64,000 bases of DNA, from NCBI GenBank assembly GCA_043745805.1, contig JAYTSD010000008.1:192001-256000 (forward strand). The letters are read 5' to 3'. This DNA comes from Fibrobacteria bacterium. Its GTDB lineage: Bacteria; Fibrobacterota; Fibrobacteria; UBA11236. Position numbers and translations under genes: made by a program. Under the pieces are notes generated by a model. The model searched no databases and was not told where the DNA came from. It saw only the letters and a program-made list of their open reading frames with translations. Each line of letters starts with the position of its first letter. Position 1 is the first letter of the stretch. Of this stretch, positions 22,622 through 30,991 are shown one piece after another.

Positions 22622-22939
22622 ATGCAAGATTTATACGCATTGCAAAAATTTAATCGGGATAAAGGGATAGACGCTGTTCAACCCATTAATACCGATATTT
22701 CTCAAGAAAACTTGGAGCGGGATGAGCAAATAGTGCAACGCCTGCAAAGTCGATTGCGTGAACGTAAAGACAAATTTCGTGAGGCCTTAAGACGCGGCTT
22801 AGCGGTTACCTCAGAAGAAATGCCCAATAACCCTGTCGATACCGATCATTATGAACCACAAAGATTAACGCGAAAAATTTGCTGGCAATATGACAAGGCC
22901 GCTAAAAAAGTGCCGTTATTTCGTCGTCATTATATCTAG
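22622..22939 (+). CDS. Hypothetical protein
   Basis: 105-aa ORF filling the gap, with natural charged/helical composition; overlaps the convergent gene by 24 bp. Confidence 0.5.
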   Translation: MQDLYALQKFNRDKGIDAVQPINTDISQENLERDEQIVQRLQSRLRERKDKFREALRRGLAVTSEEMPNNPVDTDHYEPQRLTRKICWQYDKAAKKVPLFRRHYI

Positions 22940-25045
22940 GTTCGTAACATTTTCTCCATTAAATACCCATAAGTCTGCGGGTAATTCTATCGGCCCAAAA
23001 CCTAAAGCCCCTTCCACACGGCCTGCAATAAAGACTACACGACCCATCGCACGATCGTATAAGCCAATTAAACGTTGATAAACTCGTTCACCTACATCCA
23101 GCAAAGATTCACTATCCGAAATATCGGGTAAATGTTCAAAAGCATAATCGCCTATGCTTAGGCTTAAATCCAATGCGAAAGGATGCGCTAAACTTTGAAA
23201 TTGATTTTTTAGGCTTAATAAATGAGCATGAATTGACCTAGTAATATCGGTTACTTGGCTTTGCCATGCCCTCACCAAGTCTTCGCCCGGAATAATTTGC
23301 GTAAATACAAAAAGCATTTGCAATTCATCGCGTAAAGTATGAACGTCTTGTAAATTATTACTTAACGTATGCAGGCAAGGTAAAAGTAGAGTTAATTCCT
23401 GCCCTAATTCGGTAGCATCTAATAAATGTTCATGTACCAAGGTACTAGGCAAACATTGTAAACTCAGGATTATGCGTTGATTAAATAACTTTTCGAATTC
23501 GGCTAAGGTTTGCCGGTTTATTTCCAATTCACTTAATCGCCCTGCATAAATAGCTTGTGCCTCTTCTAAATCTGGCTTCACCGGCCTTTGAAAAGCCCTT
23601 TTTGCAGCCGCAATTTGTTGCAAAGCCTGTCGCCGTTGTAATTCTAAACGATGAAACTTCTCGAATGCTAAAATCCATTCTCTAAAAAAACTTTGCATTT
23701 GTTCACGAATGCAACTTAATTTAAGAAGCGACTGATTCATTTCAAAATCGGTTTTCGAATTTTTTTGTGGCAAAAGTATGGGTAACAAATCCGTGTATAA
23801 ACCCAAAAAAAAGCCTTCTAAAGCGGCTTCACTTTCCCGAATAAGCGCATACTCTGCCATAATTTCTTCAGCGGGAAGAAAATTTCCGGATCCACTTTTT
23901 ACATTGAATTCATGACTATAATAGGCCTTCGTCAAATCTTCACATAAAGGCATAAATGCGACAAAAAAACTTTGTGCCATTCCACCCCATTGATATTTAC
24001 CCGCTTCATTCATTCCTTGAATATTGTTAATCCTATCGCCATCGGTGGGATGCATGTCATCTAAGGAGGACGATTTTTTAAAAAAATCTTGGCGAATTCG
24101 TCGACGCACTGAAGAAATAAATGGTCGACAATTCGAAAGGATTAGTGAGGGTAAATTTGCAGCCCATTTTCCTTCACTCAATGAATGTTGCAAGGACCGC
24201 AAAGCCAATGTCATAGCTTCATCCAATACCCGTAACTCTAAGATTACGCTTTCAAAAGCCTGTTTGCCTGCAATCTCAGCTTGATTTTTATCGGCATCAA
24301 ATTCCATTTGGCGATGTAAAAATCCACTGCATAAATTACACAAGCAAATCCAGCCTTGTAGAATTTTTCCTGCGCTCCATAAATGTATTTGGCAATACCC
24401 CAAAAATATCCGCGTAAATAGATTTGCCTTATGAGCGCGTTGCATCATCCATTGCTCCCACTCCGCTTTGGTATTCTTAGCTTGGCTTAAATTACGATAG
24501 ACCCAAGCAAAAAAATAACTAATACGCATACCCGACATTTGTTTATAGTGGCCCAGCTCATGCGCTATTACTCCGGCCAATTGTTGCGCATTTATTCCCG
24601 CTATCAGGGGTAACCCAATAGTTAACTCCACACGCCTTTGTAAAGCGCTAGTCAAAACGAGTCCAGCATTGATTTCCATATTTACATAAATTCGCGAAAC
24701 GCGAGGAACATGCATCAAATGACAAACTTGATCGACAAAACTAAAAAATCGTGGCTCATTTTCTCTCACTAATTCATATTGCCAAGTTATAGTTTTTGTT
24801 GCACTTAAAATCCGAATCCAGAAAAATAAAAGCAATAAGCTTTCTATTAATAACAACTCGTAGAGTGAATAAATTATCCATGATTGAAATTGACTTAAAT
24901 TTATGTGATTTAAAATCAAGGTAGTGAAGAGATACCCAATACTTATTAAGCACCCTATATAAAGTATTGGGAAAAGTATTAATCCAACAATACCAATCCC
25001 AAGTCCCAATATATATAATCCGTTACGATATGATTTTTTTTGCAA
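22916..25045 (-). CDS. M48 family membrane zinc metallopeptidase with long helical C-terminus
   Basis: N-terminal TMs, IAHELGH (HEXXH), MEFDAD and MHP..DRI. Confidence 0.85.
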   Translation of the reverse strand: MQKKSYRNGLYILGLGIGIVGLILFPILYIGCLISIGYLFTTLILNHINLSQFQSWIIYSLYELLLIESLLLLFFWIRILSATKTITWQYELVRENEPRFFSFVDQVCHLMHVPRVSRIYVNMEINAGLVLTSALQRRVELTIGLPLIAGINAQQLAGVIAHELGHYKQMSGMRISYFFAWVYRNLSQAKNTKAEWEQWMMQRAHKANLFTRIFLGYCQIHLWSAGKILQGWICLCNLCSGFLHRQMEFDADKNQAEIAGKQAFESVILELRVLDEAMTLALRSLQHSLSEGKWAANLPSLILSNCRPFISSVRRRIRQDFFKKSSSLDDMHPTDGDRINNIQGMNEAGKYQWGGMAQSFFVAFMPLCEDLTKAYYSHEFNVKSGSGNFLPAEEIMAEYALIRESEAALEGFFLGLYTDLLPILLPQKNSKTDFEMNQSLLKLSCIREQMQSFFREWILAFEKFHRLELQRRQALQQIAAAKRAFQRPVKPDLEEAQAIYAGRLSELEINRQTLAEFEKLFNQRIILSLQCLPSTLVHEHLLDATELGQELTLLLPCLHTLSNNLQDVHTLRDELQMLFVFTQIIPGEDLVRAWQSQVTDITRSIHAHLLSLKNQFQSLAHPFALDLSLSIGDYAFEHLPDISDSESLLDVGERVYQRLIGLYDRAMGRVVFIAGRVEGALGFGPIELPADLWVFNGENVTNLDIMTTK

Positions 25046-25451: not shown

Positions 25452-25946
25452 ATGGGTTTAGCAAATAAAAACGAAAACATAAACCTGCTCCCAAAGGATA
25501 AGTCTAAGGAAGCCATTCTCCTAAAAATGCGTGAGAAATTAGCTGGTGTTTCACAATATGAAATGAAAACAGAATTGAAGCGTCAAAACCGTGTCTCCCG
25601 TCGAAATATTTACTGGGGATGGAAAGTAGCCATAGCTTTAACATTTTTAGTTGCCAACATTTTATTCTTCGGTCCCGAAATAGAGGCTATGCAATCTAAA
25701 GTAGTGCATAAACTACCGACGCTGGAATCTCCACAACCCACCTTAACAATTGATCAACAGGCTCTATACTGGGGCTATGCTTTATATGATTTTGAAGCCC
25801 TGAAAAAACAATTTCATGTTCCTAAAAATGTGGCGATTGATGGAAATATCGCAAAAAAAAATCTAGCTGAACTTTTACCAAAAACTGGAAAAGGAACTCG
25901 CTATGCTTTATCGGTTTATCTTCCTGAACTGAGGAAAACATTATGA
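25452..25946 (+). CDS. Hypothetical single-pass membrane protein, first gene of the pilin operon
   Basis: One TM (VAIALTFLVANILFF); ATGA overlap with the next gene. Confidence 0.65.
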   Translation: MGLANKNENINLLPKDKSKEAILLKMREKLAGVSQYEMKTELKRQNRVSRRNIYWGWKVAIALTFLVANILFFGPEIEAMQSKVVHKLPTLESPQPTLTIDQQALYWGYALYDFEALKKQFHVPKNVAIDGNIAKKNLAELLPKTGKGTRYALSVYLPELRKTL

Positions 25947-26326
25947 AAAATAAAAATTTAGGTTTTAGTTTAATAGAAATATTAGTGTCGATAACTGTAT
26001 TAGGTATTTTGGCTTCCTCCGTTACCTATTTCATAACCACCCAAAACAAATTTTCTGTATTTGGTAGCGACTCCGTTAAAGCCCTCAATTTGGGAAAATT
26101 AAAAATGGATAGCCTAAAGGTTTCGTCTTACGACAGTTTAAAATCTGGCGTTGACACAGTTGCAGATAGGTATATAAGAACGTGGGCCATTACTACACTT
26201 ACCAATGGTGGAGTTGCCACCGGGTTAAAACAAATTGATTTGAGTGTTTCCTTTCCCTTAACTGCGGAACACTTTTCATCCTTAGTATCCATGGTCAGTA
26301 ATGACAAATTCAAGGAGGATCCATAA
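25943..26326 (+). CDS. Type IV prepilin-like protein (PilV-like)
   Basis: Class III signal KNKNLG|FSLIEILV with E5. Confidence 0.88.
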   Translation: MKNKNLGFSLIEILVSITVLGILASSVTYFITTQNKFSVFGSDSVKALNLGKLKMDSLKVSSYDSLKSGVDTVADRYIRTWAITTLTNGGVATGLKQIDLSVSFPLTAEHFSSLVSMVSNDKFKEDP

Positions 26327-27087
26327 TGCGAAAGCTCAAATTTTTCCAAGTAAAAGGATTTAGTTTAGTAGAAATATTAATAGGTATGGTAGTCAGTAGC
26401 ATTGTTATGGGAAGCATTTATTCTCTATGGAAAAGAAGTGATACCGAAACGCGAAAATTGTCCGACAAAGCCGATTTACGCTCACGTATGACTTTAGTAG
26501 ATAAAATCATTCAAAAAACTATTACTAATGCAGGTTATGGCCTGTACAATGTAGTGGATATTTCTAAAGAAGATGCAATTGGATCCGACACTTTAACGGT
26601 TTATTCTAATTCGGCCGCAATCACTACATCCTTAGGAGTGACGCATGATAAGGATCATATTGTAATTACGGTAAGTAGCGCTAGTGGATTTACTGCCGGC
26701 GGATATATCGCTATTACTGATGGTACTAATAATGAAATTCGAAAAATATATCAAATTAATGATAAAGTTATCACTATCGCAACTAAAACATTAAATAATT
26801 ATGATAAAACCAATACCACTGCGTATCCAGTTACCAAGGAAAGATATTATAGCGATGAAACATTAAATAAAATGATACGGCAAACAAATGACGGTGACCC
26901 GCATTCGTTTGGGGATAAAATCAAAAATTTTCAATTGGCCTTTCTTGACAAAAATGGAGCGTCAACTAATATCTACACTAAAATTCGTTCCATAAATTTT
27001 TCGATCACTGGCATTTATCCTACTCCAAACGGAACCATTACCGCAGTGACCGTAACTTCTAATGCAATACCTAGAAATTTAATGTAA
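26326..27087 (+). CDS. Type IV prepilin-like protein (PilW-like)
   Basis: Class III signal VKG|FSLVEILI; I..AGYG motif typical of PilW. Confidence 0.88.
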   Translation: MRKLKFFQVKGFSLVEILIGMVVSSIVMGSIYSLWKRSDTETRKLSDKADLRSRMTLVDKIIQKTITNAGYGLYNVVDISKEDAIGSDTLTVYSNSAAITTSLGVTHDKDHIVITVSSASGFTAGGYIAITDGTNNEIRKIYQINDKVITIATKTLNNYDKTNTTAYPVTKERYYSDETLNKMIRQTNDGDPHSFGDKIKNFQLAFLDKNGASTNIYTKIRSINFSITGIYPTPNGTITAVTVTSNAIPRNLM

Positions 27088-27108
27088 AACAACCCAAGGA
27101 GCGCCATC

Positions 27109-27972
27109 ATGAAACCATTCAACCCTAATCCCGAACCAACCTCATACTCTGAGCAAAAAGGCGGGGGTCTACTCACCGTAGTAACTGCCGCTGCAGTTGT
27201 TTTTGCCTTAGTACAGGGATCCGTTTATTACAAAGCCAATGCGAGTGCAAAATTTGTATCAGGGGAAAAAAGTAAAGTCGTAGCCCTACAAGTAGCCGAA
27301 TCCGGCATTGAAACGAATATATCCGCTATTGGAAATAAATCTCTCAAGATAACCGCCAATATGAATAATTATCAAACTTATAGTGGCAAGGCCATAGGTA
27401 GTGGCAATTTTTCCTCCAGTTTAACCACAAAAAGCGTCTCACCTTCAGCAGACACCGTGGATATTACCTCTACCGGAACCATGAATAATAAATCACAAAC
27501 CATAAATGCCCGTTTAAAAATCAGAAAATATTTGGATACTGCAATTACCACGTCCCTGCTTACAGCATGGGACACTACATATACCTACTCCACGAAGACA
27601 GTAATGGATACAACTATTACAAATACTATAAAAGATCCTAATACCATGCCCGATCTGAATGTTACGCCAGCCTATATTGCCTGTTTTGCTTCCGCAGCAA
27701 AAAAATGCGATGTTTGTCATTTACCTGGAGGTGATGCTACTAAGTCCAATGTGATTAGTATTTCAAAATCAGCCATAAATACACATATTTCGCATCATGG
27801 GGATTATGTAACCACCGATGGAACTTGTGATATGTATAAGGCCGTGGTTACAAAAACAATAGCCAGCGTTAGTAAAACCGATACCACTAGAATTATAAAG
27901 CTAGATACGACTTTTGTTACAGCAAAAGTGATTGATACCGCTTATAAAACACAGGTATTATCTTGGAAATAA
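27109..27972 (+). CDS. PilX-like minor pilin with an inserted CxxCH/His-rich domain
   Basis: SEQKG|GGLLTV lacks E5; ALQVAESGIE, ITSTG and terminal LSWK are PilX hallmarks; CDVCH at 27706-27720. Confidence 0.8.
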   Translation: MKPFNPNPEPTSYSEQKGGGLLTVVTAAAVVFALVQGSVYYKANASAKFVSGEKSKVVALQVAESGIETNISAIGNKSLKITANMNNYQTYSGKAIGSGNFSSSLTTKSVSPSADTVDITSTGTMNNKSQTINARLKIRKYLDTAITTSLLTAWDTTYTYSTKTVMDTTITNTIKDPNTMPDLNVTPAYIACFASAAKKCDVCHLPGGDATKSNVISISKSAINTHISHHGDYVTTDGTCDMYKAVVTKTIASVSKTDTTRIIKLDTTFVTAKVIDTAYKTQVLSWK

Positions 27973-27998: not shown

Positions 27999-28025
27999 AA
28001 AGGGAGTCTTAGACTCCCTTTTTTT
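27999..28025. terminator. Intrinsic terminator, likely bidirectional
   Basis: AAAGGGAGTC-TTA-GACTCCCTTT perfect hairpin plus T tract, between convergent genes. Confidence 0.88.
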
Positions 28026-28070
28026 ATCTAAATAGTTTTATTCTGAAATTCACTAAAAACTGGAATTGAT

Positions 28071-29726: not shown

Positions 29727-29812
29727 AGTTTTTTTCTCTCCGCTAAAAAATGCCAATTATAATTCAAATTTAGAATTAAATTCATAAGGTCAAAATGATT
29801 CCGGGGACTAGC

Positions 29813-30991
29813 ATGAAAAGCTCATTGCCTTTTTTAATATCTGCTCTTTTATTGAGCAATGCCATGGCTCAAACCAAAATTGAGCATAAAAATGAAGACC
29901 TTTCTACCCAAAATTTTAGTGGTAAGGACTTAACCGATGCAAAATTCTTAAACTGCGTACTTGATAATACCAAGTTTAATCAAACTCTAGGCAACAAAGC
30001 TTCCTTCGAGGCTTCATCCGGCAAGGCCTTGACTTTTTCAACCGCACAACTTTATGAAACTAATTTTCGCAAAGTTAATTTTAACAGTGGCGATTTTCGT
30101 AATACAGATTTTCGAGGAAGTAATTTTTCTAAAGCCAATCTTGATGGTGCTAATTTTCAAAATGCGGTTTTGTTAGATGCTGTTTTTGAAGCCACCTCTA
30201 TTGTCAAAGGCAATTTCAAAGAAAGCAAGTTTAATGAAAAAGCCAATTTTGCAAAATCCAATTTAGAAGGCGTGCAATTCAAAAATAACAGTTTAGAACA
30301 AGCGGATTTTTCAAGTTCTAATTTAAAGGATGCGGTTTTTGCCTCGGTTAAATTTCAAGGGACGGACTTCAGCGATTGTAAAATGGAAAACGTAAACTTT
30401 GCCGAAAGCAATATGTCGAATGTTGAAATGCCAAAGTTAATTTTTGCCAAAGCGAATTTTGCCTCGGTTAATTTAATGGAAGCCAATTTAAAAAAATCTT
30501 CCTTCACGGATAGTCGATTTGAAAAGGCTGAGCTCGGATTCACCAACTTAAATGGTGCAAAATGCGAGCGCTGCAATTTCACCTATGCCTCTTTCTACAA
30601 AACCGATATTGAACATGCCGAGTTCACCAATTCCATTTTCAATGTGACCACATTTGATATGACTGAATTAGTACGGGTTAATTTCAGCGGCTCACAAATG
30701 TCTAAAGCAAAATTTTCAGTTGAAAAGATCAGTAATGTAAACTTCTCACATACCGATTTAAAAAATGCTGATTTTACCGGCGTAAAACTTTTTAACTGTG
30801 ATTTTTCCGATGCCGATTTAAGCAGTGCGCGTTTTGACAATGCCTTTATTACTGGATGTGATTTTAGCGGCGCCATATTAACCAGTGCTTATTGGGATGT
30901 AGATAATTTAAAGAAAAACTATTTCAGTACCAGCACACGCTTTCCACGAAACTATAGCCCCTTACCCAGCCAAATGCGGGTAAAGCAATAG
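29813..30991 (+). CDS. Secreted pentapeptide-repeat protein
   Basis: Signal peptide ending AMA|Q, followed by continuous A(D/N)(L/F)xx repeats over about 350 aa. Confidence 0.9.
   Translation: MKSSLPFLISALLLSNAMAQTKIEHKNEDLSTQNFSGKDLTDAKFLNCVLDNTKFNQTLGNKASFEASSGKALTFSTAQLYETNFRKVNFNSGDFRNTDFRGSNFSKANLDGANFQNAVLLDAVFEATSIVKGNFKESKFNEKANFAKSNLEGVQFKNNSLEQADFSSSNLKDAVFASVKFQGTDFSDCKMENVNFAESNMSNVEMPKLIFAKANFASVNLMEANLKKSSFTDSRFEKAELGFTNLNGAKCERCNFTYASFYKTDIEHAEFTNSIFNVTTFDMTELVRVNFSGSQMSKAKFSVEKISNVNFSHTDLKNADFTGVKLFNCDFSDADLSSARFDNAFITGCDFSGAILTSAYWDVDNLKKNYFSTSTRFPRNYSPLPSQMRVKQ

Follow-up and report, generated by a model that had tools for sequence, protein, structure and literature searches.

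Here we analyze an open reading frame (ORF) of 287 amino acids carried by a 64,000-nucleotide stretch of a Fibrobacteria bacterium genome (contig JAYTSD010000008.1, positions 192,001 to 256,000 of the forward strand; this whole stretch is called the window below). The interpretation that we favor, with a probability of roughly 0.6, is that this ORF encodes a modular cap minor pilin, which would display a disulfide-stapled binding module at the tip of its filament. As we picture it, the protein would be the GspK/PilX-class cap member of a set of three minor pilins belonging to a type IVa pilus. An insertion between its last two pilin strands would form a Thr-rich, two-stranded beta-ribbon of about 30 residues per arm, with a 72-residue knob at the end. 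The core of this knob would be a generic strand-turn-strand-helix-loop module that carries two Cys, three His and one Asp and is closed by a C203-C240 bond, and a second bond, C192-C200, would tie helix 187-194 to the first strand. The CxxCH motif found there would be a by-product of C200 being placed three residues before the C-H of the module, with no heme attached. At the tip, the knob would act as a binding module, in adhesion or in sensing; the invariant H204/H226/H229/D232 cluster probably constitutes its functional site, where a divalent metal may be chelated. Within this interpretation, a divalent metal is the leading guess for the ligand of the His3Asp cluster, although we hold that guess as tentative, at somewhat less than an even chance.

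Homologues were collected with a word-indexed search, and 63 proteins at E <= 1e-3, query included, make up the pilin family considered here. Its members show 39-57% identity, are 221-305 amino acids long and are mostly unnamed or annotated as 'hypothetical'. Two homologues carry the label of a Fibrobacterota/Fibrobacteria metagenome-assembled genome (MAG), and one, P0047, was labelled 'Tfp pilus assembly protein PilX' by the Joint Genome Institute (JGI). Residues C203, H204, H226, H229, G231, D232, Y233, T236, D237, C240 and W286 are invariant in the 63-sequence alignment, and G18, C192, C200, H230, Q282, L284 and S285 are conserved in at least 90% of its members; H230 is dispensable, being replaced by V, Q or T in five of them. 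An earlier, sequence-only reading of this DNA, which started at position 27535 (the codon for D143 of the ORF), had described here a PilX-like minor pilin with a C-x7-C spacing, CxxCH, HHGD and GTC motifs, an LSWK end and two arms with mirrored DT motifs. All of these motifs are present, and their conservation among the homologues takes them beyond chance.

AlphaFold2, run on the 63-row alignment, gave a model of the full-length protein with a predicted local distance difference test (pLDDT) score of 89.5 and a predicted template modelling (pTM) score of 0.52. The modelled elements are, in order, a helix (18-75), three strands (88-96, 99-110 and 114-125), a very long strand (128-173), a compact unit (174-245, made of helix 187-194, strand 199-204, strand 214-219 and helix 220-226) and a second long strand (246-286). 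In a VIA fold search against 48,161 representative PDB chains, the top five matches are all pilins: PilA of Streptococcus sanguinis (Z 9.0), GspK (3ci0_K, Z 8.7, root-mean-square deviation 3.3, 97 aligned), ComZ (Z 7.7), XcpX (5vtm_X, Z 7.2) and a Thermus competence pilin (Z 6.8), a Z near 8 being borderline by the tool's own note. Foldseek returned nothing at E <= 1e-3 for the whole model and gave ComZ a probability of 0.90, and a profile-versus-PDB sequence search with the pilin family yielded only a flagellin (E 0.045) and a hydroxylamine-oxidoreductase-like chain (E 5.5). Because the five leading VIA matches are all pilins and ComZ comes up in Foldseek as well, the scaffold is, as modelled, that of a cap pilin of the GspK/PilX/ComZ type with an insertion between the last strands. 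The PilX-like identity proposed from sequence is upheld by these matches, by the place of the ORF after two prepilin genes and by the label of P0047.

The two long strands that carry the stalk, 128-173 and 246-286, are unbroken in the model. Along them, DT motifs lie at positions 143 (DTA), 155 (DTT) and 167 (DTT), then at 258 (DTT), 266 (DTT) and 276 (DTA), and Thr makes up 30% of residues 128-173 and 24% of residues 246-286, versus 9-10% of the rest of the protein. Family-wide, the values for the two arms are 31% and 27%, versus 10% for the N-terminal part. Arm A (27535..27642) can be written as 12-residue DT-led units, DTAITTSLLTAW, DTTYTYSTKTVM and DTTITNTIKDPN, in which every fourth position is hydrophobic on one face. 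The lengths of the two arms in the 63 sequences are (34,45) in 50 cases, (32,43) in five, (35,45) in four, (33,43) in two, and (35,46) and (31,41) in one case each, so that they co-vary with r = 0.92 among sequences that are related and non-independent. Since the arms change length together, they match what is predicted for a paired hairpin, and do so independently of the model; both the model and this covariation thus agree with the long beta-hairpin projecting a knob that had been proposed from sequence. If straight, with about 30 free residues per arm and about 3.3 Å per residue, the stalk would measure roughly 9-10 nm.

Such a stalk need not be free-standing. It could pair with a second hairpin, provided by a tandem paralogue or by another subunit, or lie along the filament. 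This would fit the low pTM, the two tandem copies present in many relatives, the hydrophobic face that arm A shows at I146, L150, W154, Y158, M166 and I170, and the weak Foldseek matches (E 5e-3 to 1.2), among which are barrel-forming hairpins (phage tail knob, MspA, lysenin). However, the stalked-knob pilin is present in a single copy in this genome, tandem duplicates being common in relatives, and its arms are Thr-rich instead of strictly alternating between hydrophobic and polar residues. In the GspK model, moreover, there is one cap subunit per filament. We therefore regard pairing of the stalk as improbable.

The knob at the end of the stalk reads ...YIAC(192)FASAAKKC(200)DVC(203)H(204)LPGGDATKSNVISISKSAINTH(226)ISH(229)H(230)GDYVTTDGTC(240)DMYK...VLSWK(287). 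Its residues 199-240 are modelled, in order, as a strand (KCDVCH), a turn, a strand (NVISIS), a helix, the HHGD loop and GTC. A phmmer search of 1.84 billion cluster representatives retrieved 70 proteins and revealed that, outside the pilin family, the segment ~197-241 corresponds to a unit of which unrelated proteins, 148-2,896 amino acids long, contain 2-10 copies separated by acidic or Pro/Thr linkers. This generic unit reads xVTICHxPPGNPxNxxTIxVxxSAxxAHLxHGDxxGxC. A hidden Markov model (HMM) of the generic module, built from 138 distinct units with pilin-family sequences left out, matches residues 197-235 of the pilin at E 1.6e-10, which is its sole match among the 8,714 ORFs of the genome. 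Exactly two Cys are found in 130 of the 138 units. Among 438 unique HMM-defined units from 148 proteins, the conserved positions are occupied as follows: C 430, H 429, H 432, H 419, G 417, D 429 and C 404 (with 34 end gaps). The six Cys, His and Asp residues of the module are all present in this pilin, as C203, H204, H226, H229, D232 and C240. When one carrier, P0080, was used as query, at least 4,383 of the 8,000 candidates scored, with lengths of 203-648 amino acids, reached E <= 1e-3; these proteins are annotated as hypothetical or named after a co-occurring CarboxypepD_reg domain, and come from MAGs of Gemmatimonadota, Planctomycetes and Bacteroidia. Judged by these sequence matches, the knob core is a single instance of an extracytoplasmic mini-domain that is widespread and uncurated. 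The phmmer matches, the HMM and the two-Cys units favor the option that the sequence-only reading had put forward as a caveat, namely a small disulfide/His module such as occurs in secreted proteins.

Neither Pfam nor NCBIfam has a model over the module in the 49 carriers scanned, and a sequence search of the PDB with P0080 gave no match. Residues 174-246, modelled in isolation, reached a pLDDT of 94.1 and a pTM of 0.82, and the isolated knob has no structural analogue in the PDB by Foldseek (best E 3.4) or by VIA (best Z 2.6). In the latter search, 18 of the 48,161 chains scored Z >= 2, including weak ribosomal-protein and BRK-domain rows that are at noise level. The ESM Atlas returned nothing usable for the knob and, for a generic carrier, unnamed 'hypothetical protein' clusters below the score bars. 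No paper in the literature searched matched the motif strings of the module, a description elsewhere being possible. An HNH-like beta-beta-alpha-metal nuclease was also considered as an identity for the knob, and was dropped on account of the tandem-repeat architecture, the lack of a nuclease fold match and a motif spacing that differs from that of HNH.

Other domains of the module carriers are Big_9/cadherin, T9SS sorting, DUF4114, DUF4215, DUF5666, FecR and CarboxypepD_reg. The module was also found in N_methyl prepilins of other lineages (P0106, P0126 and P0210) and in a PilY1 beta-propeller protein of 1,228 amino acids (P0102), which suggests that it was taken up repeatedly by pilus proteins. 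This repeated capture, together with the tandem arrays on linkers, points to a binding module displayed on surfaces. Modular pilins, in which a pilin bears a grafted functional module and displays it at the end of the filament, are an established concept (Raynaud et al. 2021, PMC8179133); the same paper holds that such pilins are thought to be under-counted, many modules having no signature in databases. The protein described here combines, in the same way, a pilin scaffold with a module that occurs also in secreted proteins that are not pilins. A bolder extension would make the module a new family of extracytoplasmic metal-binding mini-domains (one disulfide plus His3Asp) with thousands of carriers, of which this pilin clade would present a single copy some 10 nm past the tip, as a probe that binds or senses metals or minerals; we consider this extension rather doubtful.

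The filament to which this orphan set of minor pilins belongs is most likely a type IVa pilus. Genes for a prepilin peptidase, for four secretins and for two platform proteins are present in the genome. A PilB(MshEN)-PilT-PilC cluster (G000:C17:100781-106598) is followed by genes for a histidine kinase and a STAS protein, and a GspF-type gene (G000:C8:69614-73099) by two N_methyl pseudopilins and three small ORFs. The assignment is made because PilB-PilT-PilC is present and because the GspF cluster has pseudopilins of its own. The protein might instead be a true GspK that caps a type II secretion pseudopilus, with the knob located in the periplasm or in the secretin vestibule. The Z scores obtained with GspK and XcpX, the sizes of the three prepilins (127, 253 and 287 amino acids, like GspI, GspJ and GspK), and the GspF-type and secretin genes all speak for this possibility, but besides the separate pseudopilins of the GspF cluster, the PilB/PilT/PilC set includes a retraction ATPase, the module occurs elsewhere on a PilY1-domain protein, and a stalk of about 10 nm seems a poor fit for the tip of a pseudopilus. 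A role in type II secretion is in our opinion quite unlikely.

The Cys residues of the knob are informative as to its chemistry. C200 is lost in three of the 63 members (P0011, P0023 and P0030), each of which also lacks C192, and none of the 63 has lost only one of the two. These three proteins do not form a clade in a quick FastTree tree, where P0023 is nested among Cys-keepers and P0030 belongs to another major branch; from this topology, the joint loss would have occurred in two or more distinct lineages. P0076, a pilin-type carrier that is remotely related, likewise has neither C192 nor C200. Joint loss is expected of Cys bonded to each other and not of a heme-thioether Cys, and C192 and C200 most likely behave as a disulfide pair. 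At the position three residues before the C-H Cys of the module, which C200 occupies here, the 438 generic units have V in 302 cases, I in 74, A in 21, T in 12, a gap in eight, L and Q in six each, F and E in three each, M in two and G in one. As this position is never Cys in these units, C200 appears to be an addition specific to the pilin clade. The four Cys would thus most likely form two disulfides, C203-C240, which belongs to the module itself, and C192-C200, a staple of the clade. This arrangement is favored because, taken with the His3Asp cluster (H204, H226, H229 and D232), it leaves none of the invariant Cys, His and Asp unexplained. In favor of disulfides, an exported DsbA-like lipoprotein with a CPYC motif is encoded in the genome (C11:4447-5208), and a crude parity test shows even Cys counts to be commoner among exported-like proteins (252 even, 230 odd) than among cytoplasmic-like ones (273 even, 349 odd; Fisher odds ratio 1.40, p 0.006).

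Several observations weigh against the modular cap pilin that we propose. The ORF matches no Pfam and no NCBIfam family at E <= 1, PilX_N included. At the pTM obtained, it is uncertain how the stalk is oriented and how straight it is. The pairing of the Cys is drawn from covariation, and the number of joint losses from a quick tree topology. Neither DsbB nor VKOR was found in the genome, which is 99% complete. The Cys-parity signal is modest, the exported set alone, with 52% of even counts, being no different from 50% (p 0.34). The genes next to those of the module in two relatives encode S8 peptidase, acyltransferase, VWA, amylase, ThuA and Ig-like proteins, which give no hint of a metal or redox function. 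Finally, CxxCH is kept by 60 of the 63 family members, and on contig C4 a ResB gene (34.1 bits) is immediately followed by a CcsA-type ORF (84.6 bits).

Two of these points, the lack of DsbB and VKOR and the parity of the exported set, are the reason why we still leave a small share of probability to a metal cluster formed without disulfides. In such a cluster, some or all of the four thiolates would bind Zn, Fe or Cu together with His, for example in a C2H2-type site. Cys and His are equally invariant, as would suit such a site, and the order of secondary structures in the knob presumably recalls the beta-beta-alpha layout of zinc fingers. However, the loss of C192 and C200 is joint and spares everything else, as expected of a disulfide pair, an exported DsbA-like protein and a bias towards even Cys numbers exist, and no zinc-finger fold was matched above Z 2.6. 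A C2H2 site would also leave H204 and D232 unexplained, whereas one disulfide and a His3Asp cluster would cover all six residues. Thiolate ligation is, on these grounds, an improbable arrangement.

The last alternative is that of the sequence-only reading, in which CxxCH is a heme c site. CcsBA would attach heme to C200 and C203, with H204 as an axial ligand, which would make the pilus tip redox-active. The organism clearly makes c-type cytochromes: besides the ResB-CcsA pair of system II, the presence of which answers the question raised at the outset about Ccm/Ccs maturation genes, there is a second Cytochrom_C_asm ORF on contig C46, and 55 of the 8,714 ORFs contain CxxCH, 17 of them with at least two motifs. 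Among such ORFs, one of 224 amino acids that starts near position 32155 of contig C31 (forward strand) has five CxxCH, and paralogues of 810-870 amino acids on contigs C20, C33 and C44 have two each and similar N-termini. The invariant H226 or H229 could serve as distal ligand, and the C-terminal domain of a pilin faces the periplasm before assembly. Conservation of the motif, which had been suggested as a check, proved partial, C203 and H204 being invariant and C200 missing in three of 63. The co-variation of C200 with C192 has no reason to exist for a thioether Cys, and besides the complete absence of Cys at position -3 of the 438 generic units, CxxCH is found in none of the 151 carrier proteins. 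In both models, full-length and isolated knob, K-C-D-V-C-H is a beta-strand with pLDDT > 90, so that residues i and i+3 lie on opposite faces; in cytochromes c, CxxCH is part of a helical turn. The fold matches that Foldseek and VIA listed for the knob include no cytochrome. CxxCH is probably not a heme c site, and both heme attachment by CcsBA that a clade-specific extra Cys would permit and a redox-active tip resulting from it seem to us highly improbable.

The features of the modular cap pilin and of its gene cluster are collected in Table 1. An AAGGAG lies at 27096-27101, seven nucleotides before the start codon of the 287-amino-acid ORF from which the whole observation stems. The order of the four genes and their flanks are syntenic in all four relatives examined (L025-L028): an EVE-domain gene is conserved upstream, and a small lipoprotein-like ORF followed by alanine-racemase-like, pentapeptide-repeat and aminotransferase genes downstream. 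The first gene of the cluster has an ORF of about 165 amino acids at its place in relative L026 (5097-5597), and may be an unrecognised assembly or regulatory partner. An ORF of 398 amino acids (29795..30991, forward strand), with a signal-peptide-like N-terminus and pentapeptide-repeat-like sequence, keeps its synteny with the pilin cluster across relatives. In the window, a gene for a 709-amino-acid membrane protein with an M48 peptidase domain (22916..25045, reverse strand) separates the EVE-domain gene from the cluster; no similarly long reverse-strand ORF is listed at that place in relative L026, and the M48 gene looks like a local insertion.

Table 1. Features of the minor-pilin cluster and of the 287-amino-acid protein (window coordinates; residue numbers in parentheses)
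Feature	Position	Strand	Basis
First cluster gene, 164 aa, one hydrophobic segment	25452..25946	+	Pfam/NCBIfam: none; kept in synteny of relatives
Prepilin-type minor pilin, 127 aa, PilV/GspI-like size	25943..26326	+	N_methyl PF07963 E 1.9e-07, TIGR02532; synteny
Prepilin-type minor pilin, 253 aa, PilW/GspJ-like size	26326..27087	+	N_methyl PF07963 E 4.3e-06; synteny
Predicted GspK/PilX-class modular minor pilin, 287 aa	27109..27972	+	ORF call, homologues, AlphaFold2 model, fold matches
Predicted alpha-1 helix, long, N-terminal (18-75), after conserved QxGGG motif	27160..27333	+	DSSP of model; G18 conservation
Predicted pilin beta-sheet strands (88-142)	27370..27534	+	Model; align to GspK, XcpX, ComZ, S. 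sanguinis pilin
Predicted stalk arm A (143-173), Thr-rich, three 12-residue DT-led units	27535..27627	+	Model, Thr/DT count, arm-length covariation
Family-specific knob front (174-198), predicted helix 187-194, C192	27628..27702	+	Model, alignment; not in generic module
Generic C-H...H-x2-H-G-D...C module (199-240)	27703..27828	+	HMM E 1.6e-10, phmmer matches, conservation
Predicted stalk arm B (246-276), Thr-rich, DT at 258/266/276	27844..27936	+	Model, Thr/DT count, arm-length covariation
Predicted terminal strand rejoining pilin sheet (277-287, ...QVLSWK)	27937..27969	+	Model; W286 invariant
Terminator-like hairpin (27999-28021) and T-run closing the cluster	27999..28031	+	10 pairs, 5 G-C

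The distribution of the pilin was surveyed in 296 genomes of the phylum, tallies that take in one unpublished genome (G254). A match to the pilin was found in 40 of these genomes. Full-length members occur only in the family to which the window belongs, in 18 of its 31 genomes (G000 not counted), and are found in none of the 12 genomes of genus g6 and none of the 151 genomes of the largest family, f6. Relatives also possess a second PilX-like protein of about 460-570 amino acids beside a second prepilin set (P0078, of 504 amino acids; G249:C50, G250:C129, G253:C20 and others). Paralogues of the P0078 type have a large insertion, then one copy of the module, then a terminal ...ISW strand, and P0084 gave a weak match to a DUF6923 repeat.

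Tip minor pilins decide what a type IV pilus binds, and this locus would be a concrete case of a cap-type pilin that carries a module without database signature on a beta-ribbon stalk. What is new is a probable variant of the modular cap pilin, and a large uncurated family with six near-invariant Cys, His and Asp positions and no analogue in the PDB. The chemistry of the module, once defined, would give an annotation to thousands of hypothetical secreted proteins and would explain the repeated capture by pilus proteins. If it is true that prepilins and a PilY1-domain protein have repeatedly acquired a metal-binding module, this would mark a general strategy of 'metal-tipped' pili. The locus also calls for caution in annotation, in that a CxxCH motif in an exported protein need not indicate heme.

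With c-type cytochromes, the protein shares the C-D-V-C-H pentapeptide, periplasmic exposure and a genome that encodes a maturation system, but the first Cys is not conserved outside the clade and within it disappears jointly with C192, the model makes the motif a strand, and no cytochrome fold is matched. The likeness to GspK/XcpX and to PilX-class proteins is closer: a hydrophobic N-terminal helix follows a conserved Gly, with no Glu at +5, the predicted pilin fold has an extra element in its beta-sheet, and the gene comes last, after two smaller prepilins. Unlike GspK and XcpX, to which it has no match at the sequence level, the insert here would be a beta-ribbon stalk with a 72-residue Cys/His knob, that of GspK being an alpha-domain. 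ComZ, from the competence pilus of Thermus thermophilus, likewise has a pilin module whose strands are interrupted by a large insertion (Z 7.7, 99 aligned), but that insertion is a large beta-rich domain (in a chain of 518 amino acids), whereas the model predicts a hairpin stalk and a mini-domain here. The nearest parallel in purpose would be the S. sanguinis pilins PilB, with a vWA module, and PilC, with a lectin module, which, as described in PMC8179133, carry a module on a pilin for display at the tip; there the module is appended by a short C-terminal linker, whereas in the protein described here it would be inserted in the pilin sheet, on a long beta-ribbon.

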